Source: Patescibacteria group bacterium
GTDB taxonomy: Bacteria; Patescibacteriota; Minisyncoccia; Phycocordibacterales; WO2-35-19
DNA length: 64,000 nucleotides
Direction: 5' to 3'
NCBI GenBank assembly: GCA_038064735.1
Contig: JBBTSI010000003.1
Coordinates: 21,154-85,153, forward strand
Positions 5,021-62,444 of this stretch are shown here, in pieces. Positions within the stretch are counted from its first letter, which is position 1, and each line of letters starts with the position of its first letter. Both the position numbers and the translations under genes were made by a program. The notes under the pieces were generated by a model. That model did not search any database, was not told the origin of the DNA, and was given only the letters and a program-made list of their open reading frames with translations.

Positions 5021-5024
5021 TTTG

Positions 5025-5350: not shown

Positions 5351-5363
5351 AACAAAATTCATT

Positions 5364-6098: not shown

Positions 6099-6191
6099 AC
6101 CATAGACTATATCACATATAGTCTATGGTCTAAATAAAAAATGTGGATAAGTTTTTCAAAAAGATTTTATCAAAAAATATAAGATAGGGTT

Positions 6192-6947: not shown

Positions 6948-6951
6948 ACTT

Positions 6952-7037
6952 TGGTGCTCGGGGCGAGACTTGAACTCGCAAGGCCTTGCGGCCAAAGGAT
7001 TTTAAGTCCTTCGTGTATACCATTCCACCACCCGAGC
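6952..7037 (-). tRNA. tRNA-Leu(UAA), CCA encoded
   Basis: Perfect cloverleaf: acceptor GCUCGGG/CCCGAGC, anticodon loop CUUAAAA, variable arm GGCCGCAAGGCC, 3' ACCA in the DNA. Confidence 0.8.
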
Positions 7038-7128
7038 AGTGATTTGTCAAGTCTATAAAATTTCTCAACAAATGAGGCCACGGTGAGAATCGCACTCACG
7101 CATATTCCTTTTGCAGAGGAACGCCTTG

Positions 7129-7863
7129 CTACTTGGCTACGTGGCCTTTATGAAAATCTATGATTTTCTTTACTGTTTTATCAATGTTTACTGGTCTGGC
7201 TTCAAAGTAATCATTGAACGTTTTGTATTTTCTCATAAAAAAAGTATTATGACTAGCTCTTTTGTACATTAGTTTGAATAGCTTTATAGAATCTTTATTA
7301 TTGAATATGAGCTGAAATGACCTGTTGCTTTTATAAATTCTCCCATTTTCAATCTTTTCGTTTGCCAATACAGTGTTCATTTTTTCCAAAAATATCTTAC
7401 TCCCGCTTGTAAAAAATGTTCTAATTCTTTTTATGATTATTTTACCAGTGTCGCTTATCGACTTTTCAAAATAAATACAACCATCACCATCAAAATATCC
7501 TCTTATAAAATGATTTAAATATTTGTTTGGAATATTAGGAAACTGCACAGTTAGAGATTTATTTGGATATAAACCATGTTTAATAAGATCATTATAAATT
7601 TTATGATTACCGATTTTCAATGTATAGAAAGTTTTACCCTTTAAGAATAACGATTTATTTTTGGTTATGTTGTGTTCCGAACCCATCATTTTTTTGATTC
7701 GTTCTGGAGAATCTTTGTCTGTACTTGTGATAGATAAATATAAAGCTCTAATATAGTCGCAATTTATTAATGTGCCGTCAGCATATACATAACCTAGTAC
7801 ATAGGCCATATTTGGAGACCATTTATTAAAAAAATTTTCGTTTAATTTATGTTTTATACCCAC
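7129..7863 (-). CDS. LAGLIDADG homing endonuclease, double-motif
   Basis: Two dodecapeptide motifs [11 protein letters not shown] and [12 protein letters not shown]; free-standing, 91 nt upstream of and co-oriented with tRNA-Leu(UAA). Confidence 0.7.
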
Positions 7864-10275: not shown

Positions 10276-11544
10276 ATGAAAAATAAGGTGAAAATTAAAA
10301 AAACCCAGCCTTCGCATAAAGCTACGGCGGGCAAAGATAGGGTATTTTTGGACTATGCATCTGTGACGCCGGTTGATTTGGGTGTAGAAAAAGAAATGCA
10401 GAGGGTTCAAAAGCAATTTTGGGCAAATCCTTCATCCTTGCACAAGGAAGGGGAAGAGGCTAAAAATATTTTGGAAGAATCTAGGACAAAAATTGCCCGA
10501 ATTTTGCATTGCCGTAGTAGTGAAATATTTTTTACAAGCGGGGGTACCGAATCTTTAAATTTGGCTATTTTGGGTGTGGTCAAAAGAAGCCAAAGGGCGT
10601 CTTTACCGCATATAATAGTTTCAACAATAGAACATCCGGCTGTTTTGGAACCAATAAAAAATTTACTTAAAGAAAAAGTGATTGAAGTTTCTTTTATTAC
10701 ACCAAACGAGAAGGGAATAATTAGCCCAGAATCTGTCAAAAAAGAAATGAAAGAAAATACTGTTTTGGTCGTTGTTCAGCATGCTAATAATGAAATAGGA
10801 ACTATCCAACCAATAAGAGAAATTTCAAAAGCTATTAAAAATTTCAAAGAATCAGAAATGGCAAAATTGCAAAAAGCTGCGGATAAATCCCGCTTTTTGA
10901 ATTTTGCCATTTCTGATTCTCAGACTGCTCCATATCTGTTGGTAGATGCGTGTCAGAGTGTTTTGTATGAAGATGTTTCGTTAGAAAGACTCGGCGCTGA
11001 TATCTTAGTTTTGGATGGTATTAAAATGTATGGGCCAAGAGGTGTTGGCGTTTTAGCGGTAAAGCATGGCACCAAAATTTCTCCCATAACTTTTGGCGGG
11101 GGACAGGAGAATGGTTTCAGGCCGGGAACAGAAAATGTGATTGGAGTAGCTGGTTTCGCCAAAGCTTTGGAAATTTCTGTCAAAATGATGGAGAAAGAAT
11201 CAAAACGACTTTTGCAATTATGCGATTATGCTATTTCTAAAATTTTGGAAATACCAAATTCTTCTTTGAATGGCAATAAAGAAAATAGATTACCTAATAA
11301 TATTAATGTTTGTTTTTCCAATCAAGATTCGGAATTTTTGGTTATCAAATTGGATACTCTGGGTTTTGCTGTTTCGGCCGCTTCAGCTTGTCATACTTTG
11401 TCACTTGAAAACGGCTCTTATGTTATTGAGTCTATCGGCAAACCGGAATGTTCAGGTTCTTCTTTGCGTATCACTCTAGGTAGAGACACCAAAAAATCAG
11501 ATTTAGATAAATTTATAGTTGCTCTTAAAAAAATACTTTGTTAA
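10276..11544 (+). CDS. cysteine desulfurase (class V aminotransferase, IscS/NifS family) carrying an in-frame palindromic insertion
   Basis: FLDYASVTPVD, TSGGTESLNLAI, IEHPAVLEP and the active-site region SAASACHT; 25-aa insert KESEMAKLQKAADKSRFLNFAISDS encoded by the palindrome at 10849..10919. Confidence 0.85.
   Translation: MKNKVKIKKTQPSHKATAGKDRVFLDYASVTPVDLGVEKEMQRVQKQFWANPSSLHKEGEEAKNILEESRTKIARILHCRSSEIFFTSGGTESLNLAILGVVKRSQRASLPHIIVSTIEHPAVLEPIKNLLKEKVIEVSFITPNEKGIISPESVKKEMKENTVLVVVQHANNEIGTIQPIREISKAIKNFKESEMAKLQKAADKSRFLNFAISDSQTAPYLLVDACQSVLYEDVSLERLGADILVLDGIKMYGPRGVGVLAVKHGTKISPITFGGGQENGFRPGTENVIGVAGFAKALEISVKMMEKESKRLLQLCDYAISKILEIPNSSLNGNKENRLPNNINVCFSNQDSEFLVIKLDTLGFAVSAASACHTLSLENGSYVIESIGKPECSGSSLRITLGRDTKKSDLDKFIVALKKILC
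10849..10919. repeat. 71-nt perfect palindromic element (family 1) inserted in-frame in the cysteine desulfurase gene
   Basis: gaatcagaaatggcaaaattgcaaaaagc / 14-nt loop / gctttttgaattttgccatttctgattc; second copy at 47326..47396. Confidence 0.85.
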
Positions 11545-29613: not shown

Positions 29614-29624
29614 TTTTGTTGTTG

Positions 29625-29694
29625 TTAACCCCGTTAGAAGTCAGATGCAAAGCATCTGCTGAAGTTAATAACTTCAGACTTCTAACGGGGTTAA
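29625..29694. repeat. inverted-repeat element TTAACCCCGTTAGAAGTC...GACTTCTAACGGGGTTAA between divergent dprA and serS
   Basis: 18-bp perfect arms enclosing two internal hairpins (agatgc/gcatct and ctgaagtt/aacttcag). Confidence 0.7.
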
Positions 29695-29726
29695 CATTTA
29701 TTTTAACAAATGGTAGAATAAAAGAC

Positions 29727-31001
29727 ATGTTGGATATCAAATTTATAAGAGAAAATGCCGAATTGGTCGCCGATGGTGCTAAAAAAAAGCATATTGATTT
29801 TGATGTACAAAAACTCATTGAAGTTGATGATAAAAGAAAGATATTGAGTCAGAAACTTGAAGAAAAGAGAGCCAAACAAAATGAGGTTAGTATCGAAGTG
29901 GCCAAGTTGGGACAAGCCGGTAATATTGCCGAAAAAAGAAAACTCATAGAAGAAATGCAACCTCTCAAAGAGCAGATGCAAAAATTGGAAGAAGAGTTGA
30001 AAGAGGTGATGGCTGAGTGGCAAAAACTAATGGTGGCGGTGCCGAATATTCCTGATATGTCAGTACCGGATGGTGATACCGATAAAGATAATAAAGAAAT
30101 TAAAGTTTGGGGAGAAATTCCAAAATTTAGTTTTGCGCCCAAAGATCATATTGAACTTATGACAAATCTCGGGATGCTCGATCTTAATCGTGGTGCTAAA
30201 GTAGCCGGTTTTCGTGGATACTTTTTGACCGGTGATGGAGCAAGATTACAGTTTGCTCTTTGGCAATTCGTTAATGATTTTTTTAATAAAAAAGGAGGAT
30301 TTATTTCAATGATCGTACCATCGCTTGTCCGTCGAGAGCCGTTTATTGGCACAGGATATTTACCACAAGGCGAAGAGGATTTATATAAAACCCAAGATGG
30401 TGAATATCTATCGGGTACAGCTGAAGTGGCGATGATGAGTTATTTTATGGATGAGGTTTTAGACAAAAAAGATTTGCCAAAAAAAATGTTTGGATTTTCC
30501 AATGCATATCGCCGTGAAGCTGGGGCACACGGTAAAGATACAAAGGGCATCTTGCGTGTACATGAGTTTTATAAATTTGAGCAGGTGGTTTTATGCGAGG
30601 CTAGTCATGAAATCTCGGTTAAATATCATGAAGAAATTCAGGCAAATACGGAAGAAATTATGCAAGCTCTTAAGATACCATATCATGTGGTAATAAATTG
30701 TGCCGGTGATTTGGGTCTGGGCCAGGTTAAAAAATATGATATTGAAGCTTGGTTGCCTTCTGAGAATACATATCGAGAGACTGGATCAGCATCTTATTTT
30801 CATGATTTTCAGACTCGTCGTTTAAATATTCGCTATCGTGATGAAGACGGAAAAATGAAATTTGTCCATTCTTTAAACAACACCGCTCTTTCTGGCAGAC
30901 CTCTTATAATGATTGTAGAAAACAATCAGCAAGCCGATGGCTCTATCGTTATTCCTGAAGTACTCCGACCTTATATGGGAGGGAAAGAAAAAATAGGGTA
31001 A
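29727..31001 (+). CDS. serS: serine--tRNA ligase
   Basis: Start at MLDIKFIREN; N-terminal coiled coil and class II core (motif 2 FRREAG, motif 3 GSALS.R). Confidence 0.9.
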   Translation: MLDIKFIRENAELVADGAKKKHIDFDVQKLIEVDDKRKILSQKLEEKRAKQNEVSIEVAKLGQAGNIAEKRKLIEEMQPLKEQMQKLEEELKEVMAEWQKLMVAVPNIPDMSVPDGDTDKDNKEIKVWGEIPKFSFAPKDHIELMTNLGMLDLNRGAKVAGFRGYFLTGDGARLQFALWQFVNDFFNKKGGFISMIVPSLVRREPFIGTGYLPQGEEDLYKTQDGEYLSGTAEVAMMSYFMDEVLDKKDLPKKMFGFSNAYRREAGAHGKDTKGILRVHEFYKFEQVVLCEASHEISVKYHEEIQANTEEIMQALKIPYHVVINCAGDLGLGQVKKYDIEAWLPSENTYRETGSASYFHDFQTRRLNIRYRDEDGKMKFVHSLNNTALSGRPLIMIVENNQQADGSIVIPEVLRPYMGGKEKIG

Positions 31002-37900: not shown

Positions 37901-38554
37901 TTAATCAAAAGTGTCAAAGATGCCCTTTGACACTATCCTTTTGTAAAGTTTTGTGTTTTCATTTATAAAATTTTTTGTGTTGCCAAATATTTCAGTTAAG
38001 AATTGTTTATGAATTATTTTATTTTTTCTATTGCTTATAAAATCAACATAGCTACTCCATTTGTATTTTTCAGGTTTATCGATAAAACCATCTTTAATTG
38101 GATTCATATGTATATAAGAAGAAATCAGCATAAGTTGCGGATTTGTTTCGATTTGGACAGATTTAAATTGATCTTGGAAAACATGGCCAACTCTTTTGTA
38201 TTTAAGATTTATGTATTTTGCAAAACTGGTAAATACTCTGGACATAAGTTTTGAAATTGATTCATCACCGCACTGCTCTATCAATAGGTGAATATGGTTT
38301 GGCATTAAACAAAAAGCATGAAGTTTAAAATTTTCTGGTTTTAAACTAGTGATCCTTATCCTTGATTTAGGGGATTTGGTTATTTCGCATTCATTCAAAT
38401 CTTTAATATCAAATCCAAGACCTAATCCTAATCTAAAAAGAAAAGTTCTGTAATCTTGTTCATCTCTGAATATTATTTCTTTATTATCACCACGATTATA
38501 GATGTGGTGAATAGAATCTTTGGTGAAATTTTTATAATCTCTATTTCTTCCCAT
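37901..38554 (-). CDS. Y1 HUH transposase, IS200/RAYT-like
   Basis: HUH motif CLMPNHIHLLIE and catalytic-Tyr region SSYIHMNPIKDG; start at ATG 38554 (MGRNRD) with TGTGGTATAAT 7 nt upstream. Confidence 0.7.
   Translation of the reverse strand: MGRNRDYKNFTKDSIHHIYNRGDNKEIIFRDEQDYRTFLFRLGLGLGFDIKDLNECEITKSPKSRIRITSLKPENFKLHAFCLMPNHIHLLIEQCGDESISKLMSRVFTSFAKYINLKYKRVGHVFQDQFKSVQIETNPQLMLISSYIHMNPIKDGFIDKPEKYKWSSYVDFISNRKNKIIHKQFLTEIFGNTKNFINENTKLYKRIVSKGIFDTFD
37911..37933. repeat. 23-nt perfect palindrome GTGTCAAAGATGCCCTTTGACAC (REP-like), copy a
   Basis: Within the 3' codons of the transposase gene and 35 nt upstream of the hydrogenase small-subunit ATG. Confidence 0.8.
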
Positions 38555-38577
38555 ATTAAAATTATACCACAAGTAAA

Positions 38578-38600
38578 ATGTCAAAGGGCATCTTTGACAT
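38578..38600. repeat. 23-nt perfect palindrome ATGTCAAAGGGCATCTTTGACAT (REP-like), copy b, centre inverted
   Basis: Between the hypothetical gene stop and the transposase start. Confidence 0.8.
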
Positions 38601-39672: not shown

Positions 39673-39695
39673 ATGTCAAAGATGCCCTTTGACAT
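39673..39695. repeat. 23-nt perfect palindrome ATGTCAAAGATGCCCTTTGACAT (REP-like), copy c
   Basis: 38 nt upstream of the 38612..39634 gene start. Confidence 0.8.
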
Positions 39696-41220: not shown

Positions 41221-42015
41221 ATGGCAGAATTAAATTTATCTACAAAAGCAAAAATAACATGGTGTCCAGGGTGTCCAAACTCGCAGATTTTGGTGGCTTT
41301 CAGAAAAGCCGTGACTGAGATGGTAGAGAATGGTTCACTCAAGATTGAAAATTTGGTGGCTTTTGCTGGTATTGGATGTCACGGTAAAATTTCTGATTAT
41401 ATAAATGTCAACACTTTCACTTCACTTCACGGCAGACTTATCCCAGCTATGACAGGTAGCAAATGCGCTAATCCAAATCTTAATGTTATAGGTTTTTCTG
41501 GTGATGGTGATTCTTTGGATGAAGGTATAGAGCACCTCATTCATGCTGCTAAAAGGAATTCGGATATAACTTTGTTTATGCATGACAACAGAGTTTTTGC
41601 TTTGACGACCGGCCAGTTTGATGCTCTCAGTCCCAAAGGTTTTAAAGGTAAATCTTCTCCGTTTGGTAGTATTGAAGAACCATTAAATCCACTTTTACTT
41701 TTGCTTTCTGCTGGGGCTACTTTTATTGCTAGGACTTATGCTGGTGATATTGCCGGTACTAAAAAAATAATGCAGGCCGCTATGAACCACAAAGGTTTTG
41801 CTTTTGTCGACATTATCCAACCTTGTATCACTTTTTTTGATACTCGTGATTATTTTAAAGATAAGATTTATTGGATGGATGAAGGTTTACCCAAAAATGA
41901 TTTGAAATTTTCTATAGAAAAAGTTTCTGAAAATCAAAATGAAAAAGTACCTTTAGGAATATTTTATCAAGTCGAAAGATCAACTTTTGAAGAAGAATTA
42001 TATAAATCCCGTTAG
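41221..42015 (+). CDS. korB: 2-oxoacid:ferredoxin oxidoreductase beta subunit (TPP-binding)
   Basis: CPGCPN, GIGCHGK and GDGDSLDEG (TPP/Mg motif). Confidence 0.8.
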   Translation: MAELNLSTKAKITWCPGCPNSQILVAFRKAVTEMVENGSLKIENLVAFAGIGCHGKISDYINVNTFTSLHGRLIPAMTGSKCANPNLNVIGFSGDGDSLDEGIEHLIHAAKRNSDITLFMHDNRVFALTTGQFDALSPKGFKGKSSPFGSIEEPLNPLLLLLSAGATFIARTYAGDIAGTKKIMQAAMNHKGFAFVDIIQPCITFFDTRDYFKDKIYWMDEGLPKNDLKFSIEKVSENQNEKVPLGIFYQVERSTFEEELYKSR

Positions 42016-42085
42016 AAATACCAAATTATGTTCATTATGCAAAAAAATTATTGTCGATTATTAAAAGTTAGATTTCTAACGGGAT
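42006..42085. repeat. inverted-repeat element ATCCCGTTAGAAAT...ATTTCTAACGGGAT between korB and the acd gene
   Basis: 14-bp perfect arms, 52-nt spacer; left arm contains the korB stop codon; right arm ends 7 nt before the next ATG. Confidence 0.7.
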
Positions 42086-42092
42086 AAATAAT

Positions 42093-44147
42093 ATGAATTT
42101 AGAAAATTTTTTTAATCCAAAATCAGTAGCGGTTATTGGTGCTTCATCTGACACTAAAAAAGTGGGTTTTGCTCTAATTTCAAATCTTTTGAAAAATAAT
42201 CCGCCAACTGATGGAAGAAAAATTTTCCCTGTTACTCTCTCAGAAAAAGAAATTTTAGGTATGGAGACTTTCTCTTCTATTTTAAATATTCCAGATCAGG
42301 TTGATTTGGCGATAATAGCTGTAAGAGCTGATATAGTACCCAATATTTTAGTCGAATGTAGTGAAAAACATGTTTCTAATGCAATAATAATTTCTTCTGG
42401 CTTTAAAGAAATGGGGATTAAAGGTAAAGAACTCGAAAACGAAATTTCAAAAATAGCTAAAGAAAAAAATATCACTCTTTTGGGACCAAACTGTCTCGGT
42501 GTTATCGATACGAAAAAAAATTTGAATGCTTCTTTCGGTGGTCGGCAACCGCTTCCAGGTAGTATTGCTTTCTTATCCCAATCCGGTGCGCTCGGTACTG
42601 CTCTTATAGATTGGTCTATAGATGAAGGTATCGGTTTTTCCAAAATCATAAGTTTGGGTAACGAAGCACAGCTTACCGAAATCGATTTTTTGGAATTTTT
42701 AGAAAATGATCCTGAAACTTCTGCAATTTTGATGTATTTGGAAAATATAAATGATGGACCGAAATTTTTGGAAACTGTAAAAAGAATTACCTTGAAGAAG
42801 CCTGTGGTTATAATAAAAGCAGGTATGGGTAATCATGGAAATTTGGCTGTCATGTCTCACACTGGAGCTTTGGCACCGCAACCTGCAGTGTTCATTTCTG
42901 CTTGTCGACAAGCGGGTGCTACTACTGTGTCATCAGTGCGGGGATTTTTTAATATTATTAAAATATTGTCTCAAATAGGATTTAAAAAAGATCCTATTCA
43001 ACATTTGATTATTTTGACAAATGGTGGTGGACCGTCTGTCGTTGCTGCTGATCTTATCGACCGTTCTCGTTCTCTATCTCTCGCAGTTTTTTCTGAAAAT
43101 ATTAAAGAGGAATTGCGCGCTACTTTACCTAAAATGGCTGCTATCGGGAATCCAGTTGATATTATAGGTGACGCTCTTGCAGACCGATATGACAAAGCCC
43201 TCGAAATTTTATGCAAAGCGGAAGATTGTGATGCAATCATGGTGATACTTACTCCTCAAATGATGACAGAAGCAGCAGAGACTGCGAAAGTACTTGCTAA
43301 GTATAAAGATAAAAAAATAATATTTCCGGTTTTTATAGGCGGAGAGGGGATACAAGCTGGACGCAATGAACTCATAAAATCTGGTTTGGTTCACTTTGTT
43401 TTCCCTAGAGATGTTATCGATAGTTTAGATTATTTGGCTCAAAGTTCTCCTAAACGCAAACCCAATTCCGGTCACCATAGCTTTGGACATCATGGTGAAC
43501 TTATGACTTCGGTAAGAAATGGAGAGATGATGGAATTTAAATCAACACTAGAATTACTTTCTCAATACAATATTTCTATTGAAGGCCGATTTTTAACTAG
43601 AAAAGAAGATTTAGGAAATGCTTTAAATTCACTCGGTAGCGGTCCTTATACAATGAAAGCGATTTCCAAAGAAGCGGTTCATAAAACCGAAACAGGAGCA
43701 GTTAAATTAAATATTTTAAGTGTAGATGAAGCCAACTGGATATGGGAAGATATGTGGACGAAAATTCCAAAAGTGGAGGGTATTATTGTTCAGAAAATGG
43801 AAAAAGGTAGGGAAATAATAATCGGTATGAAAAGAGACAACACTTTTGGTCCGACGATACTTTTTGGTTTGGGTGGGATTTTTGCCGAAGCAATAAAGGA
43901 TACAGTGCTACGTGTTGCCCCAATTGGAAAAATTGAGGCTCTAGAAATGATGCAAGAAATAAAGGGTATCAAAATTTTGCAAGGTCTGCGTGGCCAACCA
44001 CCAGTAAACTTTGAAATGCTGGCCGATATTCTCGTAAATCTCTCTAAACTTTCTCTTGATCATCCGGAAATAAAAGAAATTGACTTTAACCCTGTTATGG
44101 CTACTGAAAATTCCGCCATCATTGTGGATGTGAGGATAATGATTTGA
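42093..44147 (+). CDS. acetyl-CoA synthetase (ADP-forming), fused alpha-beta (NDP-forming acyl-CoA synthetase)
   Basis: CoA-binding N-terminus KSVAVIGAS, succinyl-CoA-synthetase-like flavodoxin domain, ATP-grasp C-terminal half. Confidence 0.8.
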   Translation: MNLENFFNPKSVAVIGASSDTKKVGFALISNLLKNNPPTDGRKIFPVTLSEKEILGMETFSSILNIPDQVDLAIIAVRADIVPNILVECSEKHVSNAIIISSGFKEMGIKGKELENEISKIAKEKNITLLGPNCLGVIDTKKNLNASFGGRQPLPGSIAFLSQSGALGTALIDWSIDEGIGFSKIISLGNEAQLTEIDFLEFLENDPETSAILMYLENINDGPKFLETVKRITLKKPVVIIKAGMGNHGNLAVMSHTGALAPQPAVFISACRQAGATTVSSVRGFFNIIKILSQIGFKKDPIQHLIILTNGGGPSVVAADLIDRSRSLSLAVFSENIKEELRATLPKMAAIGNPVDIIGDALADRYDKALEILCKAEDCDAIMVILTPQMMTEAAETAKVLAKYKDKKIIFPVFIGGEGIQAGRNELIKSGLVHFVFPRDVIDSLDYLAQSSPKRKPNSGHHSFGHHGELMTSVRNGEMMEFKSTLELLSQYNISIEGRFLTRKEDLGNALNSLGSGPYTMKAISKEAVHKTETGAVKLNILSVDEANWIWEDMWTKIPKVEGIIVQKMEKGREIIIGMKRDNTFGPTILFGLGGIFAEAIKDTVLRVAPIGKIEALEMMQEIKGIKILQGLRGQPPVNFEMLADILVNLSKLSLDHPEIKEIDFNPVMATENSAIIVDVRIMI

Positions 44148-45988: not shown

Positions 45989-46687
45989 TTATATACCAGG
46001 ACCAAAATATTTTTCACGATAGAAGCGGATGAGTTGTTCGACTTTGGGGACGAGGTCGGGGTGGCCGACGGCGACTTTGGTGCGTTTTTGGACATCGACT
46101 AAAGTGACAGCGCCTTCGAGGACGGCTTCTTCAATATCAGCTTCAGTGGTTTTGGTATCTGGGTCTAAAATTTGTTGACCATCGGTGACGATTCTTTTAA
46201 GCTGGCCGGTTTTTTTGAACCAATCATTGAGTGCGGCGCGGAGCGCTTTGTCGCCGAGGACCGAGCAATGGATTTTCCTATCTGGCAGACTGCCCAATCT
46301 TTTTATAATATCTTGCGGTCTGATTTGCAAAGCTTTGTCGATCTTCATACCACCCCCGCCCGAACGACTGTTCAGTCGGGCAGGTTTCTCGCCAATCATC
46401 ACAGAAAGCATCGAAGTGGTGGCGATAGCCGAAGCACAACCGAAAGTGCGCCATTTCATTTCTTTTATTCTATCCGTTTTCTTATCAATTTTAAGCCAAA
46501 TGCGCATCACATCTCCGCAAGCCGGTGAGCCGACGATACCCGAAGCATCATATTTGGCCTCTTTCGGATCTTCTAGAAGCAAGTTTCTGGGTTTGAAGAA
46601 GTGCTCTTTCACTTCTTTGGTGTAAACCCAAGAATTGCCAGTAAACTTATTAACCACGTCAGGTTTATTTTTTTTCATATAATTCAA
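45989..46687 (-). CDS. IscU/NifU-N-like Fe-S cluster scaffold with N- and C-terminal extensions
   Basis: Three scaffold cysteines: SPACGDV, RTFGCASAIA, HCSVLGD. Confidence 0.65.
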   Translation of the reverse strand: MNYMKKNKPDVVNKFTGNSWVYTKEVKEHFFKPRNLLLEDPKEAKYDASGIVGSPACGDVMRIWLKIDKKTDRIKEMKWRTFGCASAIATTSMLSVMIGEKPARLNSRSGGGGMKIDKALQIRPQDIIKRLGSLPDRKIHCSVLGDKALRAALNDWFKKTGQLKRIVTDGQQILDPDTKTTEADIEEAVLEGAVTLVDVQKRTKVAVGHPDLVPKVEQLIRFYREKYFGPGI

Positions 46688-47915
46688 AAGGGGAAATTTG
46701 TCTTAACCTCTTCACAACTTCCGGCAAATGCTTTAGCACATATTTAACATCTTCAGATGTGCTGTATTTACCCAAAGTGAAGCGCAGACTACCATGAATA
46801 TATTCGTATGGGTTGCCAAGTGCAGAAAGAATATAAGATGGCTCCAAACTTTGGGAATTGCAGGCACTACCGGTGGAGACCATTATACCAAGCTCGTCCA
46901 GATATAAAAGCAGAGCCTCGCCTTCCACATCCAAAATAGAAATATTGAGGAAATTTGGTAAGCGTTTGGCTGGGTGGCCATTCAAAATAACTTTGGGAAT
47001 AATTTTAAAAATACCTTTTTCTAAAGTGTCGCGAAGTTTTTTGATACGAGCGGTTTCTGTTTTTCTTTTTTTAGTGACTAACTCTAGTGCCTTGACGAAG
47101 CCAACAATGCCAGCGACATTTTCGGTACCACTACGCAATCTTTGCTGACCACCACCATAAATAATAGGGGAAATTTGGGTGCCCTTTTTCACATACAAAC
47201 CGCCGACACCTTTGGGTCCGTAAATTTTGTGAGAAGAAATAGTCATTAAATCTGCGCCAAGTTTCTCTACATCCAAATCCAAAAATTTTGCTGATTGGCT
47301 TGCGTCGGTATGAAGGTGGGGGAAAGAATCTGAAAAAGCAAAATTGCAAAAAGCTGCGGATAAATCCCGCTTTTTGAATTTTGCTTTTTCAGATTCTTTG
47401 AATTCCTTAATTATTTTCGAAATCTCTGCAATCGGTTGAATGGTGCCAGTCTCACTATCAGCCATAGTGATGGAAATTAAAATAGTTTTTGCATCCAATT
47501 CTTTTTTTAATACTTCCAAATCTACTAAGCCGTTTTTCAAAACCGGCAACCTTACAATTTTAAAATTATCCTTTTCTAAAGCATCGCAAGTTTTCAAAAC
47601 CGCTTTGTGTTCAATTTGGGTAGTTATGATTTTGCCCCCTTTTTCTTTATTAGCTTTGGCAACGCCAAGTATAGCCAGATTATCCGCTTCAGTAGCCGAA
47701 CCAGTAAATACAAATTCATCGGGTCGGCAATTTAAAATTTTGGCGATGGTTTTAGTTGATTTAGTGATAGCAAATTTAGATTTTTGGCCCAATCTATACA
47801 GACTCCCAGGATTACCAAAATCTTCCTTAAAATAAGGGAGCATCGCAGAGACGACCTGTTTGTCTACAGGAGTAGTCGCGGCATAATCAAAATACCTCTG
47901 CTTTTTCATGAGCAT
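46665..47915 (-). CDS. cysteine desulfurase (IscS/NifS family) carrying an in-frame palindromic insertion
   Basis: FDYAATTPVD, TGSATEADNLAI, SSHKIYGPKGVG (PLP Lys), STGSACNS (catalytic Cys); insert KESEKAKFKKRDLSAAFCNFAFSDS encoded by the palindrome at 47326..47396. Confidence 0.85.
   Translation of the reverse strand: MLMKKQRYFDYAATTPVDKQVVSAMLPYFKEDFGNPGSLYRLGQKSKFAITKSTKTIAKILNCRPDEFVFTGSATEADNLAILGVAKANKEKGGKIITTQIEHKAVLKTCDALEKDNFKIVRLPVLKNGLVDLEVLKKELDAKTILISITMADSETGTIQPIAEISKIIKEFKESEKAKFKKRDLSAAFCNFAFSDSFPHLHTDASQSAKFLDLDVEKLGADLMTISSHKIYGPKGVGGLYVKKGTQISPIIYGGGQQRLRSGTENVAGIVGFVKALELVTKKRKTETARIKKLRDTLEKGIFKIIPKVILNGHPAKRLPNFLNISILDVEGEALLLYLDELGIMVSTGSACNSQSLEPSYILSALGNPYEYIHGSLRFTLGKYSTSEDVKYVLKHLPEVVKRLRQISPFELYEKK
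47326..47396. repeat. 71-nt perfect palindromic element (family 1), second copy, in-frame in the second cysteine desulfurase
   Basis: Central 44 nt identical to the copy at 10849..10919; outer stem differs at 3 positions per arm, all compensatory. Confidence 0.85.
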
Positions 47916-48851: not shown

Positions 48852-49158
48852 CTCCGCGGGTTGGATTCGAACCAACGACCAATCGCTTACATAGAATCTC
48901 CTATTACTAGAAGTATGGACTATATCATCCCCATGTCTTTTGATTTAGGGGCGAGGGGCTTCGAACGTGAAATAAACACGTCCTACTCCATAAAGGATAG
49001 TCTCTACACCTTCCCTGACTTTTGTCTGGGCTTGGCTCGGGATTGCCCGCTTTTTAAAGCTTGGGTTTCCCCGAATTCACCTCGTTTTTCATCCAAAATT
49101 TCTTTTGGAAGCTGCATTATAAATACAGGCGACTGCGCTACCGCTGCGCCACCGCGGA
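48852..49158 (-). tRNA. tRNA-Asn(GUU) interrupted by a 235-nt group I intron in the anticodon loop
   Basis: Exons: 5' UCCGCGGUGGCGCAGCGGUAGCGCAGUCGCCUGU (49158..49125), 3' UAAGCGAUUGGUCGUUGGUUCGAAUCCAACCCGCGGAG (48889..48852). Spliced anticodon loop CUGUUAA, U1-A72 and G73 as in E. coli tRNA-Asn. Confidence 0.7.
48890..49124 (-). mobile_element. group I intron, subgroup IC3-like (Azoarcus/Anabaena tRNA-intron type)
   Basis: P7 strands AGACUA / UAGUC; near-identical matches to the Azoarcus core: CGAGCCAAGC, GAAGGUGUAGAGACUA, GUGAAUUCGGGGAAACC. 5' splice site after U (U.G with IGS GCAG); last intron nt G. Confidence 0.75.
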
Positions 49159-49167: not shown

Positions 49168-49461
49168 TTATTTATTTTTCAAGTTACAAATCTCTTTCGG
49201 GATTTTTGTGATCTCATCATGGACTTCCATATGACAATTCGCACAAAGCAACACACATTTGTCTATTTCTTTGCGAAGCCTTTCCCACGAACGTGTTAAA
49301 CCCTTAGAAGACATATCGAAGTCTTTGTTTTTAGGATTTACATGGTGGAAACTCAATGCTCGTGAGCATTTATTGTAACCACATATCGCGCATTTGTTGC
49401 CTTTATAAGATCTAGCCATTTCACGCAGTTTTATTCTTCTGCGTTTAACAGCCATAACCAT
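49168..49461 (-). CDS. HNH endonuclease
   Basis: CAICGY...HHVNP...CANCHMEVH (HNH zinc-finger nuclease motif); stop codon 9 nt upstream of the intron-bearing tRNA-Asn; start uncertain (49461 or upstream 49548). Confidence 0.65.
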   Translation of the reverse strand: MVMAVKRRRIKLREMARSYKGNKCAICGYNKCSRALSFHHVNPKNKDFDMSSKGLTRSWERLRKEIDKCVLLCANCHMEVHDEITKIPKEICNLKNK

Positions 49462-49611
49462 ATACTTTGCTCGATCGGCATAAGTCCTTGTCTCTTTTCT
49501 TATTTTGGTATACACAACATAAGTATACCACATAAATTTAAAGAACATTGCTATTGTAGCAAAAATCTATACGGTTGCAATAACGAAAATATATTTGGTA
49601 TACTTATATGT

Positions 49612-51355: not shown

Positions 51356-52330
51356 CTATCTTTGTCCTCGTAGAAAATCTTCAAAAGACATTTCATTTTT
51401 ACCTTCAGGTTTAACTTTCAAAATTTTTAGCTTGTTATCTTCAATCATGGCGTCAGTTATGATGATACGTTTATTGTTTAGGAAAAAGTAAGCAGTGGGC
51501 CATTCTTCAAACGCTTTTATTTTGAGCAAATTTTCATGAGCGTTTTTTTCTAAGTTTTCCAAATCTATTTTGAGTTCACCGTCTTCTTTTTTTATTTTTT
51601 GGCAATATGTCGCTTCTGTTTCTCTTTGCATAATTGGATCAATGGCACCGATGAGCCATTCAGGTAAAATGTGAGCAAAAAGTCTTGCTCCTTCTATGGC
51701 CAAATGTTTTTCTAATTCTTTGCGACCAAGTGGCCAGAGAGTTCTTGAAGTTGCAAGTTCAGAAATGCCTTGCGAGGCTGACTGAGCTGAGCACGAGGAA
51801 TTTTCTAGCAAGAAAATATCCGTGCATTTATGGGCTTGCGACGGAAAGAACTCGATTTTTCTTTGCACTACTATTGCTCCCGTATCCATACCTTCATCAA
51901 TTTTCATAATACTCACACCCACTTCTTGAGCATCTTCTAAAATCTGGCTTTGAATAGGAGAAGCTCCGCGGTATTTTGGAAGTAGAGAAGGATGAATGTT
52001 CAAAGTTTTGTGTTTTGGAATCTCAAAAACTTCAGGCGGAATTATTTTGCCGTAGGAGGCGACTAAGAAAAGCTCTGAGCTGAGAGCTTTGAGTTGAGAG
52101 ATTAAGTTCGGATTATTTTTGAGAGAGGCGGGTTCAATAACTTCAATATTATTTTCTTTAGCCCAAATTTTTACTGGAGTAGGAGTGAGCACTAGTTTTC
52201 GCCCTTTAGGTTTGTCTGGAGTAGTGATAATCAGAGAAGGTAAAATATTATGGATTTTTAATTCATCCAAAACATAAACACTAAATTCAGATGAGCCAAA
52301 AAACACCCAATTTATTTTTTTTGTAATCAT
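51356..52330 (-). CDS. fmt: methionyl-tRNA formyltransferase, carrying an in-frame palindromic insertion (family 2)
   Basis: Formyltransferase N-domain HPSLLPKYRGASPIQ; def-fmt order; insert ...KCTDIFLLENSSCSAQSASQGISEL... Confidence 0.85.
   Translation of the reverse strand: MITKKINWVFFGSSEFSVYVLDELKIHNILPSLIITTPDKPKGRKLVLTPTPVKIWAKENNIEVIEPASLKNNPNLISQLKALSSELFLVASYGKIIPPEVFEIPKHKTLNIHPSLLPKYRGASPIQSQILEDAQEVGVSIMKIDEGMDTGAIVVQRKIEFFPSQAHKCTDIFLLENSSCSAQSASQGISELATSRTLWPLGRKELEKHLAIEGARLFAHILPEWLIGAIDPIMQRETEATYCQKIKKEDGELKIDLENLEKNAHENLLKIKAFEEWPTAYFFLNNKRIIITDAMIEDNKLKILKVKPEGKNEMSFEDFLRGQR
51759..51832. repeat. ~70-nt palindromic element (family 2) inserted in-frame in fmt
   Basis: Core CACGGATATTTTCTTGCTAGAAAATTCCTCGTGCTCAGCTCAGTCAGCCTCGCAAGGCATTTCTGAA (coding sense); second copy at 61506..61578. 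Confidence 0.8.
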
Positions 52331-56665: not shown

Positions 56666-58489
56666 ATGGAAAAACACCCCCTTCACCTCAAAATCCCAGA
56701 ACTGCAAAAGTCAGAAGAAGTAGAATTAGCTGTAGAAAAACAGGAACGTCTAACTGAGGAAAAAATACCCAACAATCCCAACGAAAGAATAGAAGCATAC
56801 ATGGATCGTTTGGAAAACATCTTCCTCAACCCCAACGAACGGGTAAGAGAAAGGAACCTGGAGATGGTCAAAAACAAGATATACGATAACCTCCTCATCA
56901 AGAAAGAAAACTTCCCTGAGTCATACTTCGAACTCCAAAAAAGAGTAGCTAGAGAACAAGGTCACGGTGATATAGAAATCACTCCGGAAATGCGTGACCA
57001 AATGATGAATGTAGCTATCGAAGACCAAAAACATTCTCTAGACCAATGGACAGACTACCTCACATCAGAAGATGCTGTCTATCCGGCTTGGTTTAAATAC
57101 TACGCTTGGAGCCAAGTCATTAAGTTATCTCAATTTGATAAAGAAAGAGGTGAATTCAAAAAACGCACTGACTCTACCGTCGCTCCATACCCCGATATAT
57201 ACCGCGAACCCCTAGCTGAACTCTGCGACCTTTACGAAAAAGTTAAGGAAGATAACAAGGCTCTCAAAGATGATGAAGTCAAAAGACTCTTTTCTGAAAG
57301 ATTTCCTTCTGCTTACGCCGAACTCATTCAAAAATCCCTCGCTTCTCAAATTGAAAATCAAGAAGAAATCAAAGGAGAATGGATAAAGTATGAACAAGGT
57401 GATATGAGACAAGCCGAGAAACTCTACGAATCTCTGGAAGGCAAAGGCACTGGTTGGTGTACTGCAGGCAAGTCAACCGCTAAAACTCAAGTTGAACAAG
57501 GAGATTTTTATGTATATTACACTAACGATTCAGAAGATAAACCCACTCAACCCAGATTAGCTATCCGTATGAACGGTCAAAACAAAATTGGTGAAATTCG
57601 AGGTATTTTACCTCATCAAAACGTTGAATCTATGATGCAAGATGTATTAGACAGAAAACTCAACACCTTTGGTGACGCTGGTGATATCTACAGAGAAAAA
57701 AGCTATGATATGCAACGTCTCACTAAGATTGAGGAAAAGACCAAATCAAACCAAGAACTTTCAAAAGAAGACCTCATCTTTCTCTACGAAATCAACAGAA
57801 AGATTGAAGGGTTTGGGTATGACAAAGATCCGAGAATTGAGGAGATTAGAGGAGAGAGGAATATAAAAGAAGACGCGCCAATCATACTTGAATGCAAACC
57901 TGAAGAAATCGCTACCAATGAAAGTGAAATAACAGAAAACACCAAAGCCTACATTGGCAAACTTTTTCCCAACATATTTAAAACCAACATTAACCCAGAT
58001 AATATTTATACTTCTTTTCCTGAAGGCAAAATTCAAAAATATGAGACTCAGATTGGAGGAAAAACTAAAGATGAATTAATGCTAGAAATGCAAGAAAAAA
58101 ATATCAATATTTCAGATTATGCTAAGGATATGTTAAACAGCCAAGATTTTACTACTCAAACAAATCAAGAAAACCTCAATCTCGTCAGACTAACTGTCAA
58201 AGACTTGGGATTCCCAAATGGCACTACTACAGATGAAATTTACAAGAAAGCCGAAGAATTCGGTTTAGAACTCTGTCCCGCTGAAGTCGGCCCATCCCTC
58301 AGACTCTCATATTTAGGGAAAGATTATATGGTTATCGCTATGAAGCAAATCACAGACCGCGACGGCCGCCTGAGAGTGTTTGACCTCTACTGGTATGGCG
58401 GCAAGCTCGTACTGAGCACGTTTTACGCTAAGCCTTCGAATAGGTGGGATGACTACCACAAGTTCATTTTTCGTTCCCGCAAGTCTTAG
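56666..58489 (+). CDS. DGR target (variable) protein, 607 aa, C-terminal C-type-lectin/FGE-like variable region
   Basis: C-terminal 44 codons form the variable repeat (VR), homologous to the downstream template repeat with adenine-specific differences; the rest has no recognisable domain. Confidence 0.75.
   Translation: MEKHPLHLKIPELQKSEEVELAVEKQERLTEEKIPNNPNERIEAYMDRLENIFLNPNERVRERNLEMVKNKIYDNLLIKKENFPESYFELQKRVAREQGHGDIEITPEMRDQMMNVAIEDQKHSLDQWTDYLTSEDAVYPAWFKYYAWSQVIKLSQFDKERGEFKKRTDSTVAPYPDIYREPLAELCDLYEKVKEDNKALKDDEVKRLFSERFPSAYAELIQKSLASQIENQEEIKGEWIKYEQGDMRQAEKLYESLEGKGTGWCTAGKSTAKTQVEQGDFYVYYTNDSEDKPTQPRLAIRMNGQNKIGEIRGILPHQNVESMMQDVLDRKLNTFGDAGDIYREKSYDMQRLTKIEEKTKSNQELSKEDLIFLYEINRKIEGFGYDKDPRIEEIRGERNIKEDAPIILECKPEEIATNESEITENTKAYIGKLFPNIFKTNINPDNIYTSFPEGKIQKYETQIGGKTKDELMLEMQEKNINISDYAKDMLNSQDFTTQTNQENLNLVRLTVKDLGFPNGTTTDEIYKKAEEFGLELCPAEVGPSLRLSYLGKDYMVIAMKQITDRDGRLRVFDLYWYGGKLVLSTFYAKPSNRWDDYHKFIFRSRKS
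58353..58485 (+). repeat. DGR variable repeat (VR)
   Basis: 133-nt alignment to the TR; 18 mismatches, 17 at positions where the TR has A. Confidence 0.8.
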
Positions 58490-58827
58490 AGATTTGGATA
58501 CTTAGTTTCTTAATTCCAATTTTCCTTATTTAGATTTTTTGAAATTTTGATACTTTGGTTTTTATTTTTTTAAAATTCTGTATACTAAATTCAGATTGGT
58601 TATTTTGGACGGTCACGGCTTTCCAAAACCTTTCCGATACAAATAAATTGAGATTATAAACGGCCACGGCTTTTTATAGAGTAATTTATTTTGTATTCTA
58701 AAAAGAAATATACTTGGTATATGGTGCTGTGTGATTTGAGATCATGCATAAAATTAAACTCAAGTTTTTGTTTTTCATTAAATAATCACAAGAGAAGAAC
58801 GGTGTAATAGATGGCGCTGTATACAAA

Positions 58828-58960
58828 CAGACCGCGACGGCAACCTGAAAGTGTTTAACCTCAACTGGAATGGCGACAAGCTCAAACTGAACACGAACAA
58901 CGCTAAGCCTTCGAATAGGTGGAATGACAACAACAAGTTCATTTTTCGTTCCCGAAAGTC
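58828..58960 (+). repeat. DGR template repeat (TR)
   Basis: Rich in AAC/AAT codons in the VR reading frame (N L K V F N L N W N G D K L K L N T N N ...); non-coding copy 340 nt downstream of the VR. Confidence 0.8.
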
Positions 58961-58981
58961 ACTTCTTTTCCTTGCTGGATT

Positions 58982-59383
58982 TTATCTCGCAAGGTTTTTC
59001 TTTTCCGGATTTTCTAAATTTTTCCTCCAACCACCAAACATTTTACCGATTTCTTTCAATTTTTCTCCAATTTCTGCGTATTGTTTATGAGAAATTAGTT
59101 TACCTTCCCAAGTTATATGAATCAAAAATTTGATGGCGTCCAAATCTAAAATACACTGGTTTATCCTTTCTATTTTCTTATCTTTTTCGATAAAATAGGC
59201 TATATATGAAAGTTCCAGCAAATCCAAAAATTTATTCTCAATGCGAGCACCAATGCTGTGGCGTTGGCCTTTAGGCACATGATCAAGAATACTTACCCAA
59301 AGCAAATATGCCTCTTTGATGCGTTGAAGTATCGAGGCGTTAACGAGAGAGAGAGAGAGAGAGAGAGTAGAAAATTGCGCCAT
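58982..59383 (-). CDS. avd: Avd-like accessory protein (four-helix-bundle, 23S rRNA IVS-protein family)
   Basis: 133 aa; pattern ...HVPKGQRHSIGARIENKFLDLLELSYIAYF...YAEIGEKLKEIGKMFGGWRK typical of the TIGR02436/Avd family; N-terminus LSLSLSLS encoded by a (GA)n repeat. Confidence 0.6.
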   Translation of the reverse strand: MAQFSTLSLSLSLVNASILQRIKEAYLLWVSILDHVPKGQRHSIGARIENKFLDLLELSYIAYFIEKDKKIERINQCILDLDAIKFLIHITWEGKLISHKQYAEIGEKLKEIGKMFGGWRKNLENPEKKNLAR

Positions 59384-60367
59384 AAATATAACGATACCAT
59401 ATCAGTAGAAAATTTGCTCCACTCTTGGCAGGAATTTTTGTGTGGCAAGAAAAAACGCAAAGATGTAGCCGAATTTTTATTAAATTTTTCTGATAATATT
59501 TTTGATTTGCGTCAAGAACTCAAAAACAAAACTTACAAACACGGTGGATATCATGCTTTCAAAATAAATGACCCAAAACCAAGGAGTATTCATAAAGCTA
59601 GTGTCAGAGACAGACTTTTACACCATGTAATTTATAATGCTCTGTATCCGTATTTTGACCGGAAATTTATTTTTGATTCGTATTCTTGTAGGTTTGGGAA
59701 GGGGACACATAAGGCTATAAATCGTTTCAGAGAATTTGGCCGCAAAGTCTCAACAAATCATACTAAAACCTGTTGGGTATTGAAGTGTGATATCAGGAAG
59801 TTTTTTGCTAGTATTAATCATAATCTTTTGAAAGATATTCTTGATAAAAATATCAAAGACCCAGACATTTTTTGGCTACTTAATCAGGTTATAGATAGCT
59901 TTAATACAGAAAACAAAGTTGATGTCGGTTTGCCTCTCGGTAACCTTACAAGTCAGATTTTTGTAAACATTTATATGGACAAATTTGATCAGTTTATGAA
60001 AAGAGAAATCAAAGCCAAATATTATATAAGATACGCAGATGATTTTGTGATTTTAAGCGAAAACAAAAATTATCTTTTAAAACTTATACCTAAAATCGCT
60101 AGTTTTTTAGAAGAAAAATTAAAATTAGAATTGCACCCAAACAAACTTTTTGTTAAAACCTTATCTTCAGGGATTGATTTTCTGGGCTGGGTGCATTTTC
60201 CTAAGTATAGAGTTTTGAGAACTAGCACCAAAAATAGAATGTTTAGAAGACTAGCAGGGGAATTTAAAAAAGAAACAGGGGCTTCGTATTCAGGACTATT
60301 GAGTCATGGGAACGGGTTTAAGTTGGGGGAGAGAATTAAGTTGTTGCAAAAGCAAAATTTGGTATAA
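59258..60367 (+). CDS. DGR reverse transcriptase
   Basis: RT motifs: SYSCRFGKGTHKA, LKCDIRKFFASINH, GLPLGNLTSQIFVNIYM (DGR-specific SQ motif 4), YIRYADDFVIL (motif 5). True start uncertain; the listed ORF start overlaps avd in antisense. Confidence 0.8.
   Translation: MALAFRHMIKNTYPKQICLFDALKYRGVNERERERESRKLRHKYNDTISVENLLHSWQEFLCGKKKRKDVAEFLLNFSDNIFDLRQELKNKTYKHGGYHAFKINDPKPRSIHKASVRDRLLHHVIYNALYPYFDRKFIFDSYSCRFGKGTHKAINRFREFGRKVSTNHTKTCWVLKCDIRKFFASINHNLLKDILDKNIKDPDIFWLLNQVIDSFNTENKVDVGLPLGNLTSQIFVNIYMDKFDQFMKREIKAKYYIRYADDFVILSENKNYLLKLIPKIASFLEEKLKLELHPNKLFVKTLSSGIDFLGWVHFPKYRVLRTSTKNRMFRRLAGEFKKETGASYSGLLSHGNGFKLGERIKLLQKQNLV
59345..59365. repeat. (GA)10 dinucleotide microsatellite
   Basis: gagagagagagagagagagag inside the avd 5' coding region and the RT upstream frame. 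Confidence 0.9.
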
Positions 60368-61250: not shown

Positions 61251-62444
61251 ATGACAATTATAATCTTTCTAATTATCTTGGGAGTACTCGTGTTTGTTCA
61301 TGAGCTTGGGCATTTTTTGTTTGCTAAAGGTGCTGGAGTCAGAGTGGATGAATTTGGTTTTGGTTATCCACCGAGAGCTTTGAAATTGGGCAAAAAGTGG
61401 GGAACTTTATTTTCTTTAAATTGGATTCCTTTTGGTGGTTTCGTTAAAATTTTCGGTGAAAATTATGATGAGGAGGAAGATGAAAGTTTTCCTTCACCCC
61501 AAGATCAGAAATCCACGGATATTTTTCTGCTGAAAAATTCCTCGTGCTCGGCTCAGTCAGCCTCGCAAGGGATTTCTGATTCTCGGGGTTCGAAAAACCT
61601 ACCATTTACAAAAGTTTCTAAAAAATGGCAGGCATCTATACTTTTTGCCGGCATCTTTTTTAATATTCTTTTTGCTTGGTTTTTGTTTAGTGTTGGGTTT
61701 TTGATTGGTGTACCTTCTCCGGTAGATAATGATTTTGGTGCGGAAGTTAAAAATCCAATCTTAACGGTAGTTGGACTGGTCCCAGAATTTCCCGCTCAAA
61801 AAGCAGGATTAAAAACAGGTGATAAAGTTTTGAATATATCTTTAAATAATGGAAAAGTTTTGCAAAACCCAACTTCAGAAAATGTTTCCGATTTTATAAA
61901 TCAATCTTCCGGTCAAATTAATGTGCAAATCGATAGGGGGGCAAAAATTTTGGATTTCAAAATCACACCGGAAACTAATACAACTTCAAACAAAAAAATA
62001 ATAGGCATAGAAATGGACACGATAGGCACATTAAAACTTCCTATACACAAAGCTATTTATGAAGGAGGCAGGACCACGATAAGACTTTCTTATCTGACAG
62101 TTGAGAGTATTGCCGGTTTGATAAAAGGTGTACTCACAGGTAAAGCCAATATTTCTGAAGTGACCGGTCCGGTTGGCATCGTGGGTTTGGTGGGGGATGC
62201 ATCAAGGCTCGGCTTCTCGTATCTCCTTACTTTTACCGCTCTAATTTCCATAAATCTTGCTGTAGTGAACTTGGTGCCATTCCCAGCTCTTGATGGTGGG
62301 CGCATTCTTTTTGTAGCTATTGAAGGCATCACCCGCCGAAAAATAAATCCAAAAGTAGCCAATACTTTGAACACTGTCGGTTTCACTCTTCTCATCATTG
62401 TCATGCTCATCGTCACTTATCGTGATATTCTTAAACTTTTCTAA
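61251..62444 (+). CDS. rseP: RIP metalloprotease RseP (site-2 protease, M50 family), carrying an in-frame palindromic insertion (family 2)
   Basis: HELGHF zinc motif, PDZ domain, C-terminal LDGG; insert ...KSTDIFLLKNSSCSAQSASQGISDS... Confidence 0.8.
   Translation: MTIIIFLIILGVLVFVHELGHFLFAKGAGVRVDEFGFGYPPRALKLGKKWGTLFSLNWIPFGGFVKIFGENYDEEEDESFPSPQDQKSTDIFLLKNSSCSAQSASQGISDSRGSKNLPFTKVSKKWQASILFAGIFFNILFAWFLFSVGFLIGVPSPVDNDFGAEVKNPILTVVGLVPEFPAQKAGLKTGDKVLNISLNNGKVLQNPTSENVSDFINQSSGQINVQIDRGAKILDFKITPETNTTSNKKIIGIEMDTIGTLKLPIHKAIYEGGRTTIRLSYLTVESIAGLIKGVLTGKANISEVTGPVGIVGLVGDASRLGFSYLLTFTALISINLAVVNLVPFPALDGGRILFVAIEGITRRKINPKVANTLNTVGFTLLIIVMLIVTYRDILKLF
61506..61578. repeat. ~70-nt palindromic element (family 2) inserted in-frame in rseP
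   Basis: cagaaatccacgg...caagggatttctg; differs from the fmt copy at 6 positions including a compensatory g/c swap in the terminal stem. Confidence 0.8.

Follow-up and report, generated by a model that had tools for sequence, protein, structure and literature searches.

Rickettsia palindromic elements (RPEs) are palindromic repeats of about 150 bp that lie in frame in unrelated genes, encode a conserved peptide in each family and, in the summary given by PMC10969869, have no known mechanism (Ogata et al., 2000, Science 290:347; Ogata et al., 2002, Genome Res 12:808; summarised in PMC10969869). Studies that cite this RPE literature deal with Rickettsia, Coxiella, pneumococcus, Mollicutes and nematomorph mitochondria, and in the literature on palindromic or in-frame elements we found no description for the candidate phyla radiation (CPR), Patescibacteria or Parcubacteria. 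Here we describe a palindromic element in a 64,000-nt stretch of a Patescibacteria group bacterium (GCA_038064735.1, contig JBBTSI010000003.1, positions 21,154 to 85,153 of the forward strand; hereafter, the window), where one copy lies within fmt (methionyl-tRNA formyltransferase) and another within rseP (site-2 protease). We read it as selfish DNA that is translated as a passenger peptide, because it is an RPE-like, in-frame hairpin repeat in the loops of many unrelated genes; in our view the two copies probably belong to one family of small, non-autonomous selfish palindromic repeats (about 115 nt) that spreads within and between Patescibacteria genomes (Paceibacteria, Zambryskibacteria-like). 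In-frame palindromic selfish repeats are a known kind; this family is new, and it occurs in a new phylum.

The element shares with RPEs a multi-copy palindrome of 100-150 bp located in frame in unrelated housekeeping genes as well as in spacers, a conserved peptide per family that is compatible with the host fold, the lack of a known transposase or mechanism, and a small, reduced host genome. Indeed, it is dispersed in multiple copies, palindromic, and read in a single frame within a continuing open reading frame (ORF), with orthologues that lack the insert at a tolerant site. The likeness to RPE-1 to RPE-10 is one of kind and not of sequence homology. Unlike RPEs, the element belongs to the phylum Patescibacteria, its centre is a three-way junction with two hairpins, its outer arms are highly variable between copies yet paired, with compensated changes even at orthologous sites, and the protein loops that it occupies are hotspots for many different palindrome families. 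The compensated junction fold and the loop hotspots, together with a consistent strand asymmetry, go beyond the RPE descriptions.

[quoted passage not shown] However, MITEs carry conserved terminal inverted repeats matching a parent insertion sequence, as well as target-site duplications; since the termini of our element are its least conserved part and no target duplications were seen, it is not a classical MITE. Repetitive extragenic palindromes (REPs) and bacterial interspersed mosaic elements are, like our element, structure-defined palindromes thought to be handled as a folded single strand, whereas REPs measure 20-40 nt, are extragenic and flank a gene for a REP-associated tyrosine transposase (RAYT), and the element measures about 115 nt and is mostly intragenic; moreover, the RAYT-like gene of the window is flanked by a hairpin other than the element. 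On inspection, ends such as GTTTTCC...GAAAAAC match neither the R'' nor the R' site of integron attC (RYYYAAC ... GTTRRRY) in either orientation. In yeast, mitochondrial genes harbor GC-cluster or 'byp' hairpin elements. Coding palindromes have also been reported in mitochondrial genes of Nematomorpha (PMC6649704). Both cases resemble ours in having long inverted repeats within coding genes, translated or tolerated, with both arms coding; they differ in being organellar, with repeats that are perfect and locus-specific or bypassed by the ribosome, and in forming no dispersed family with a shared core.

A repeat search of the window returned two 80-nt arms with 88% identity on opposite strands (51759-51838 and 61500-61579), the longest inverted pair in the window, and the 20-nt core GCTCAGTCAGCCTCGCAAGG occurs exactly twice, against 0.00 occurrences expected (100 shuffles). 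An earlier note on this DNA had reported copies at 51759-51832 and 61506-61578, and both were found there. ORFs and Pfam confirmed that they lie inside the long ORFs of fmt (51356-52330, minus strand; 324 aa; Formyl_trans_N/C; insert at about residues 161-198) and rseP (61251-62444, plus strand; 397 aa; Peptidase_M50 and PDZ; insert at about residues 79-116); the sense orientation of the element is taken throughout as the host-gene strand. The shared peptide TDIFLL(E/K)NSSCSAQSASQGIS, the G/C swap in the closing stem (AAATGC..GCATTT versus AAATCC..GGATTT, pair 34:92) and the inner ATTTTT/AAAAAT hairpin were likewise borne out, whereas the proposed length of about 70 nt was too short: the shared ~66 nt are the centre of a palindrome of 113-115 nt, and the element measures about 115 nt. 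The complete element occupies 51739-51853 in fmt (minus strand, 115 nt, Fmt codons E160-L198), as delimited by the outermost enclosing pair on folding, with a covariance-model match at 51734-51858 (116 bits). In rseP it occupies 61486-61598 (plus strand, 113 nt, RseP codons S79-N116), as delimited by inverted-repeat arms and folding, with a covariance-model match at 61480-61604 (124.6 bits). The peptide encoded by the element is given as TDIFLLENSSCSAQSASQGISE. Proteins identical to those of the window are recorded at NCBI (P0001 for Fmt, P0145 for RseP), both from a Patescibacteria metagenome-assembled genome (MAG), and the closest named relatives of both proteins are Candidatus Zambryskibacteria and Paceibacterota.

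Folding showed that the flanks of the shared ~66 nt are complementary within each copy and different in sequence between the fmt and rseP copies. Across copies the full palindrome spans 111-141 nt, and fold z-scores of -2.4 to -6.3 indicate that it is able to form a stable hairpin. Read on the sense strand, an outer stem (P1a, 7-18 bp) is followed by a small pyrimidine-rich internal loop and then by P1b and P1c (18-20 bp); P1c ends in ...AAATGC / GCATTT... and leads into a three-way junction with hairpin A (GGATA-TTTTC-TTGCTA-GAAAA-TTCC) and hairpin B (TGC-TC-GGCT-CAGTC-AGCC-TC-GCA), of which the loops and junction bases are nearly invariant. In the fmt copy (minus strand) the P1 5' arm GAGTTCTTTCCGTCGCAAGCCCATAAATGC (51824-51853), which differs from that of the rseP copy, pairs with the 3' arm GCATTTCTGAACTTGCAACTTCAAGAACTC (51739-51768; inverted-repeat search, folding and consensus). 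Hairpin A of this copy, GGATA-TTTTCT-TGCT-AGAAAA-TTCC, lies at 51797-51821 (RNAalifold consensus columns 38-62) and hairpin B, TGC-TC-AGCT-CAGTC-AGCC-TC-GCA, at 51771-51793 (columns 66-88); the latter holds the 20-nt core and has one A.C mismatch (G to A, column 71). In the rseP copy (plus strand) the inverted-repeat search, folding and consensus place the 5' arm GTTTTCCTTCACCCCAAGATCAGAAATCC at 61486-61514 and the 3' arm GGATTTCTGATTCTCGGGGTTCGAAAAAC at 61570-61598, and folding and consensus place hairpin A, GGATA-TTTTTC-TGCT-GAAAAA-TTCC, at 61517-61541 and hairpin B, TGC-TC-GGCT-CAGTC-AGCC-TC-GCA, at 61545-61567.

This fold is conserved by compensation. In an ungapped alignment of 23 distinct copies, RNAalifold recovered 34 pairs, 24 of them with double changes; 91.3% of the cells were paired, against 72.9% in shuffled alignments (0 of 500 shuffles reached the observed value) and 34-51% when partners were slid by 1-3 columns, and double-change cells numbered 143, with 47 expected. 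The stem of hairpin A is paired in 99.6% of its cells, shows double changes in 4-10 of the 23 sequences at 6 of its 10 pairs, and exists in at least six compensated versions. In hairpin B, the stem GGCT/AGCC is swapped in other genomes to GCCT/AGGC, GCTT/AAGC or GGTT/AACC at the DNA level; the peptides CSPQSGSQG, CSLQSSSQG, CSTQSVSQG and CSRQSRSQG are consistent with such swaps, with the nucleotide changes confirmed for the first two. Furthermore, four orthologous rseP copies (the window and loci L025, L026 and L027, all with frr-rseP-proS synteny) display compensated changes in all three helices, including a T:A to A:T change at the base of hairpin B. Searches of Rfam 15, self-cleaving ribozymes included, with both loci on both strands gave no match over the element, either with gathering thresholds or with the limit relaxed to E <= 10, and no hammerhead core was found on inspection of the copies.

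The distribution of the element was assessed by searching the exact 20-mer in GTDB species-representative genomes, metagenomes and viral contigs. Eight loci were retrieved from species-representative genomes, all of them Patescibacteria MAGs (one named Zambryskibacteria), and 15 from metagenomes, among which L010 is a GC-rich chance match, L019 duplicates L004 and two are truncated. Viral contigs yielded no exact 20-mer match, and phage and plasmid records no real match, a single 27-nt match in a Streptococcus phage tail gene (E = 8e-3) being treated as chance. Together with the window, 24 DNA copies with the core were read, at least 22 of them beyond the window, in at least 10 unrelated host genes and at 8 intergenic sites. 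The in-frame hosts are dus, rnhB, comEC, trmH, uvrB, uvrC, tsaD, ksgA, fmt and rseP, all identified by reading the host ORFs, with rnhB encoding RNase HII and ksgA encoding KsgA/RsmA; the tRNA-dihydrouridine synthase (dus) copy is found at an identical site in three genomes, and the TrmH/SpoU methyltransferase copy in three genomes. Every in-frame copy carries the peptide CTDIFLLENSSCSAQSASQGI. A word-indexed protein search with the 45-residue insert gave no match; when the two window peptides were instead used for an exhaustive profile search, FolD and further KsgA, Dus and RseP cases were recovered, along with many short ORFs that are probably intergenic copies. The covariance model built from the 23 copies matched only the two known copies in the window, and detected in other loci four weaker relatives that keep the architecture with a different sequence. 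In the ksgA of L023 two elements of the superfamily reside in a single gene; the positions noted in this connection are L023 8536-8660 and L006 6305-6431.

The earlier note had argued for insertion rather than common ancestry, and this holds: the core is present in at least 10 unrelated genes and in spacers of several Patescibacteria genomes, and many orthologues lack it. Indeed, the comparison that it called for, with element-free orthologues, could be made for both fmt and rseP, and insertion is concluded because many Fmt and RseP orthologues are without the element. Among the 120 closest Fmt orthologues, 37 have the canonical 29-residue segment MDTGPIVIQKK.E.ENWP.GRKELEK.LA, where the window Fmt has 64 residues; the Fmt P0003, from the syntenic locus L024, carries the same element, and this locus has it in fmt and not in rseP. 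Among 120 RseP orthologues, the stretch bounded by GGFVKIFGENYEE and FTQVSKKWQ can be as short as 4 residues (P0166) or exceed 50 and holds many different repeat-like peptides, and nine of these orthologues carry variants of this family. Elsewhere among the Fmt orthologues, this position is taken by palindrome-encoded inserts that are quite different, e.g., SPLTPLLD.GEGKH...LPSPDQGEGGRRPGGV. Unrelated inserts of this type in the same Fmt and RseP loops (P0002-P0264) include SPLTPLL..GEG..RRPGGV, SLRSQDATHISLQEHS, EQKHTVPALGHKDKALGTVVFVP and FSEKF...FSEKFF. Decay is also apparent, as Fmt P0030 retains the arms alone, RseP P0186 the right arm alone, and several RseP orthologues a drifted ...YSAQSTSQGIVQSF. 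Arms-only orthologues (L024 rseP, P0030 Fmt and P0186 RseP) were considered as empty sites, and their asymmetric junctions fit deletion derivatives better. The outermost stem may be copied from the target, or the core may enter the tip of an older hairpin, either of which would explain the differing outer stems of copies with the same inner arms.

The inter-domain linker of Fmt, where the earlier note had proposed to look for the insert, presumably lies further downstream, as in the E. coli structure. By Pfam, PDB 4iqf and AlphaFold2, the site is instead a loop inside the catalytic Formyl_trans_N domain. Fmt residues 6-161 match 4iqf residues 5-159, and Fmt 210-286 match 172-243, so that between these blocks the insert replaces a 12-residue loop (4iqf 160-171); the Pfam N-domain match ends at profile position 160 of 181. 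An AlphaFold2 model built with 120 homologues reached a mean predicted local distance difference test (pLDDT) score of 88.5 and fell below 50 only at residues 164-196, which correspond to the insert, between strand 152-159 and helix 203-226; an earlier run with 19 sequences (mean pLDDT 57, residues 92-200 all low) was not used. The encoded ~38 residues are thus predicted to form an unstructured protrusion from an Fmt fold that is elsewhere modelled with confidence. In RseP, residues 81-121 have no counterpart in Aquifex RseP, falling between its residues 79 and 81, directly after the GG(F/Y)VK edge strand of the membrane-reentrant beta-sheet and an acidic tail, and before the second transmembrane helix. 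Since the region after the edge strand is cytoplasmic in the E. coli RseP structure (PMC9401612), the periplasmic location that had been suggested for this insert is incorrect. Orthologues of both proteins show that the host loops are hypervariable and can be dispensed with.

Only two of six reading frames run through the core without a stop, and all genic copies use the same one of them, which reads CTDIFLL..SQG in host ORFs of 149-726 aa. When all 125 nt are considered, stops interrupt the sense frame in 0 of 15 genic copies versus 7 of 8 intergenic ones (Fisher p ~3e-5, our own calculation); the arms are therefore not intrinsically open, and the genic copies have been filtered for translation. 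About half of the latter are free of stops in the antisense frame as well. Hydrophobicity was considered as the cause of the orientation bias and ruled out, because the grand average of hydropathicity is -0.44 for the sense peptide and -0.56 for the antisense one. Among intergenic copies, 6 of 8 are co-oriented with a neighbouring gene.

The inner arms define subfamilies that span different hosts, namely fmt/ksgA/folD, comEC/uvrB, trmH (L014)/tsaD, and rseP (window)/dus (L005), a pattern that transposition or copying of a whole ~100-nt unit predicts. Within these subfamilies the outermost stem differs between copies yet is perfectly paired, and a single site in trmH is occupied by two different arm subfamilies; the divergence of outer stems may reflect fast symmetric evolution through templated correction, the conversion of one copy by another, or entry into hairpins that were already present. 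The antisense strand is the more stable one in 23 of 23 copies under both RNA and DNA parameters, with mean fold energies of -52.3 versus -42.3 kcal/mol (RNA) and -30.6 versus -27.2 kcal/mol (DNA), a difference that comes mostly from the arms, where genic copies have 20 A.C mismatches (G.U on the antisense strand) versus 3 G.U. Moreover, the conserved unpaired internal loops, read from the alignment, are rich in pyrimidines on the sense strand, and the antisense strand shows a GA/GA-like sequence there. These data suggest the antisense strand as the relevant form; alternatively, the asymmetry may arise from selection for weaker mRNA structure.

A selfish repeat of this type would leave surviving genic copies only where it lands in, or is filtered by selection to, a stop-free frame at a permissive surface loop, and its peptide would be carried along as a passenger that itself has no function. 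The conserved junction and loops would be recognised on a folded single strand by a mobilising or copying machinery, and the recognised strand would probably be the antisense one, whose fold is the more stable of the two in every copy. Arm complementarity could be kept by this requirement for a folded strand or by templated (quasi-palindrome) correction during replication, and copies would decay through deletion and drift, leaving extra loop residues in host proteins. Several observations weigh against such selfish spread. Movement is inferred solely from distribution, because no mobilising enzyme was found linked to the element, inspection of the 23 copies showed neither target-site duplications nor a conserved target motif at the palindrome borders, and there are no conserved termini among these copies, the outermost 7-18 bp differing even within one arm subfamily. 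Compensated pairing at the orthologous rseP sites is no less compatible with a selected function than with pure selfishness. All genic copies lie in one orientation, and the peptide alone cannot explain this full bias because the antisense frame is often open and no more hydrophobic. The recovery of copies by an exact 20-mer exaggerates the contrast between an invariant core and variable arms, and the statistics on covariation and strand do not represent independent events because the copies are related. Translation of the element in its host genes is likewise predicted, being read from open frames.

The selfish reading must be weighed, in this context, against a function of the folded nucleic acid itself, whether as a cis-acting mRNA structure, an antisense small RNA or a single-stranded DNA (ssDNA) site for a recombinase or HUH enzyme, with the junction selected at each locus and the in-frame peptide as the price of residing in genes. 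We judge this rather improbable, in spite of the strong covariation in three helices, the near invariance of loops and junction bases, and the compensation at one orthologous site in four genomes, all of which it would account for, as it would for the better folding of every antisense strand with its GA/GA-type internal loops, the distant relatives with the same architecture and a different sequence, and the co-orientation of most intergenic copies. However, Rfam has no counterpart even at the permissive threshold, no consistent genomic context or association with promoters or terminators is seen, and the hosts are functionally unrelated; in addition, the element is missing from many orthologues, and deletions erode its copies. 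Palindrome symmetry can, besides, persist with no selection, since quasi-palindrome mutagenesis preserves it by templated correction.

Conservation of the peptide and its single frame in every genic copy could also point to a protein module, in which (C)TDIFLLENSSCSAQSASQGIS would act as a binding or localisation tag spread by recombination, the palindromy being incidental. This is largely refuted and very improbable, as conservation tracks base pairing, with AQSA turning into PQSG, LQSS, VQST or RQSR after stem-compensating changes; the same sequence, moreover, lies between genes with stop codons in its arms, the insert is modelled as disordered, and many orthologues have no insert. The window stems from a MAG, which raises the question of an assembly or binning artefact, or else of chance low-complexity similarity; such an origin is scarcely credible given that independent assemblies, made in different studies and from different sites, contain the element, that host reading frames are intact, that zero chance matches are expected, and that 3-4 contigs on record encode the identical Fmt and RseP proteins. 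A bolder and unlikely conception is that of a new class of structure-defined element whose active form would be the folded antisense strand (as ssDNA for an HUH-type or other enzyme, or as antisense RNA), with a junction selected per locus, as the compensated changes in the rseP orthologues suggest, and a preference for entering or replacing earlier palindromes at the same loops. If so, such loops would be engines of protein-length variation across the CPR.

Returning to the selfish palindromic repeat, its presence would be of interest since patescibacterial genomes rank among the smallest and most streamlined of all bacteria, and yet essential genes in them (fmt, rseP, dus, uvrB/C, tsaD, ksgA and others) would hold translated selfish palindromes. 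A phenomenon once called unique to Rickettsia would thereby extend to a second, unrelated lineage with reduced genomes, and would account for many of the strange low-complexity 'insertions' that predicted proteins of these MAGs show. Furthermore, the sharply defined fold and its strand asymmetry offer a handle for finding the mechanism of movement or maintenance.

The window contains further palindromes and mobile sequences. Another in-frame palindrome family is represented at 10846-10920 and 47323-47399 (92% identity), within ORFs 10276-11544 (plus strand) and 46665-47915 (minus strand); its two copies have opposite orientations in their genes, and the arms give the same peptide either way (KESE.AK...NFA.SDS). 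The outer stem of this family, ATCAGAAATGGC, resembles the P1c stem of the fmt/rseP element. Short GC-rich quasi-palindromes occur within ORFs of this AT-rich genome (10303-10337, 40683-40717 and 44682-44715; 22628-22656 and 56456-56484), encode e.g. QPSHKATAGK and TSLKLRGAS, and probably constitute further intragenic repeat families. Palindromes with CCCGTTAGAA / TTCTAACGGG arms are located at 29623-29696, at the start of ORF 29616-31001, and at 41982-42109, in the spacer that precedes ORF 42093-44147.

A RAYT-like Y1 (IS200-type) transposase is encoded at 37901-38584 (42 bits to Pfam Y1_Tnp; 67.9 bits to NCBIfam REP_Tyr_transpos, cut-off 80). Its gene (37901-38599) is flanked by inverted hairpins, TGTCAAAGATGCCCTTTGACA, unrelated in sequence to the element, with a third copy 1 kb off (39674-39694), in a REPtron-like arrangement. 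As a mobiliser of the fmt/rseP element it remains a candidate only, since it has its own, different hairpins and no linkage was observed. A diversity-generating retroelement (DGR) occupies 56666-60367, with a bAvd-like ORF (58982-59383, minus strand), a reverse transcriptase (59258-60367, plus strand) and a 134-nt repeat pair of 87% identity, of which 58352-58485, at the 3' end of ORF 56666-58489, is the likely variable repeat and 58827-58960 the likely template repeat. The syntenic loci L024, L026 and L027 lack this entire cassette between holB and frr, and its reverse transcriptase, which lies beside rseP, was rejected as a mobiliser because the DGR is absent from syntenic relatives that still have the element. 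Finally, a group I intron at 48897-49134 (minus strand; Rfam, 67 bits) adjoins a small HNH endonuclease ORF (49168-49548, minus strand), and a LAGLIDADG-type homing endonuclease ORF (7129-7863, minus strand) and a helix-turn-helix ORF (5364-6098, minus strand) are found among tRNA genes (5024-7146).

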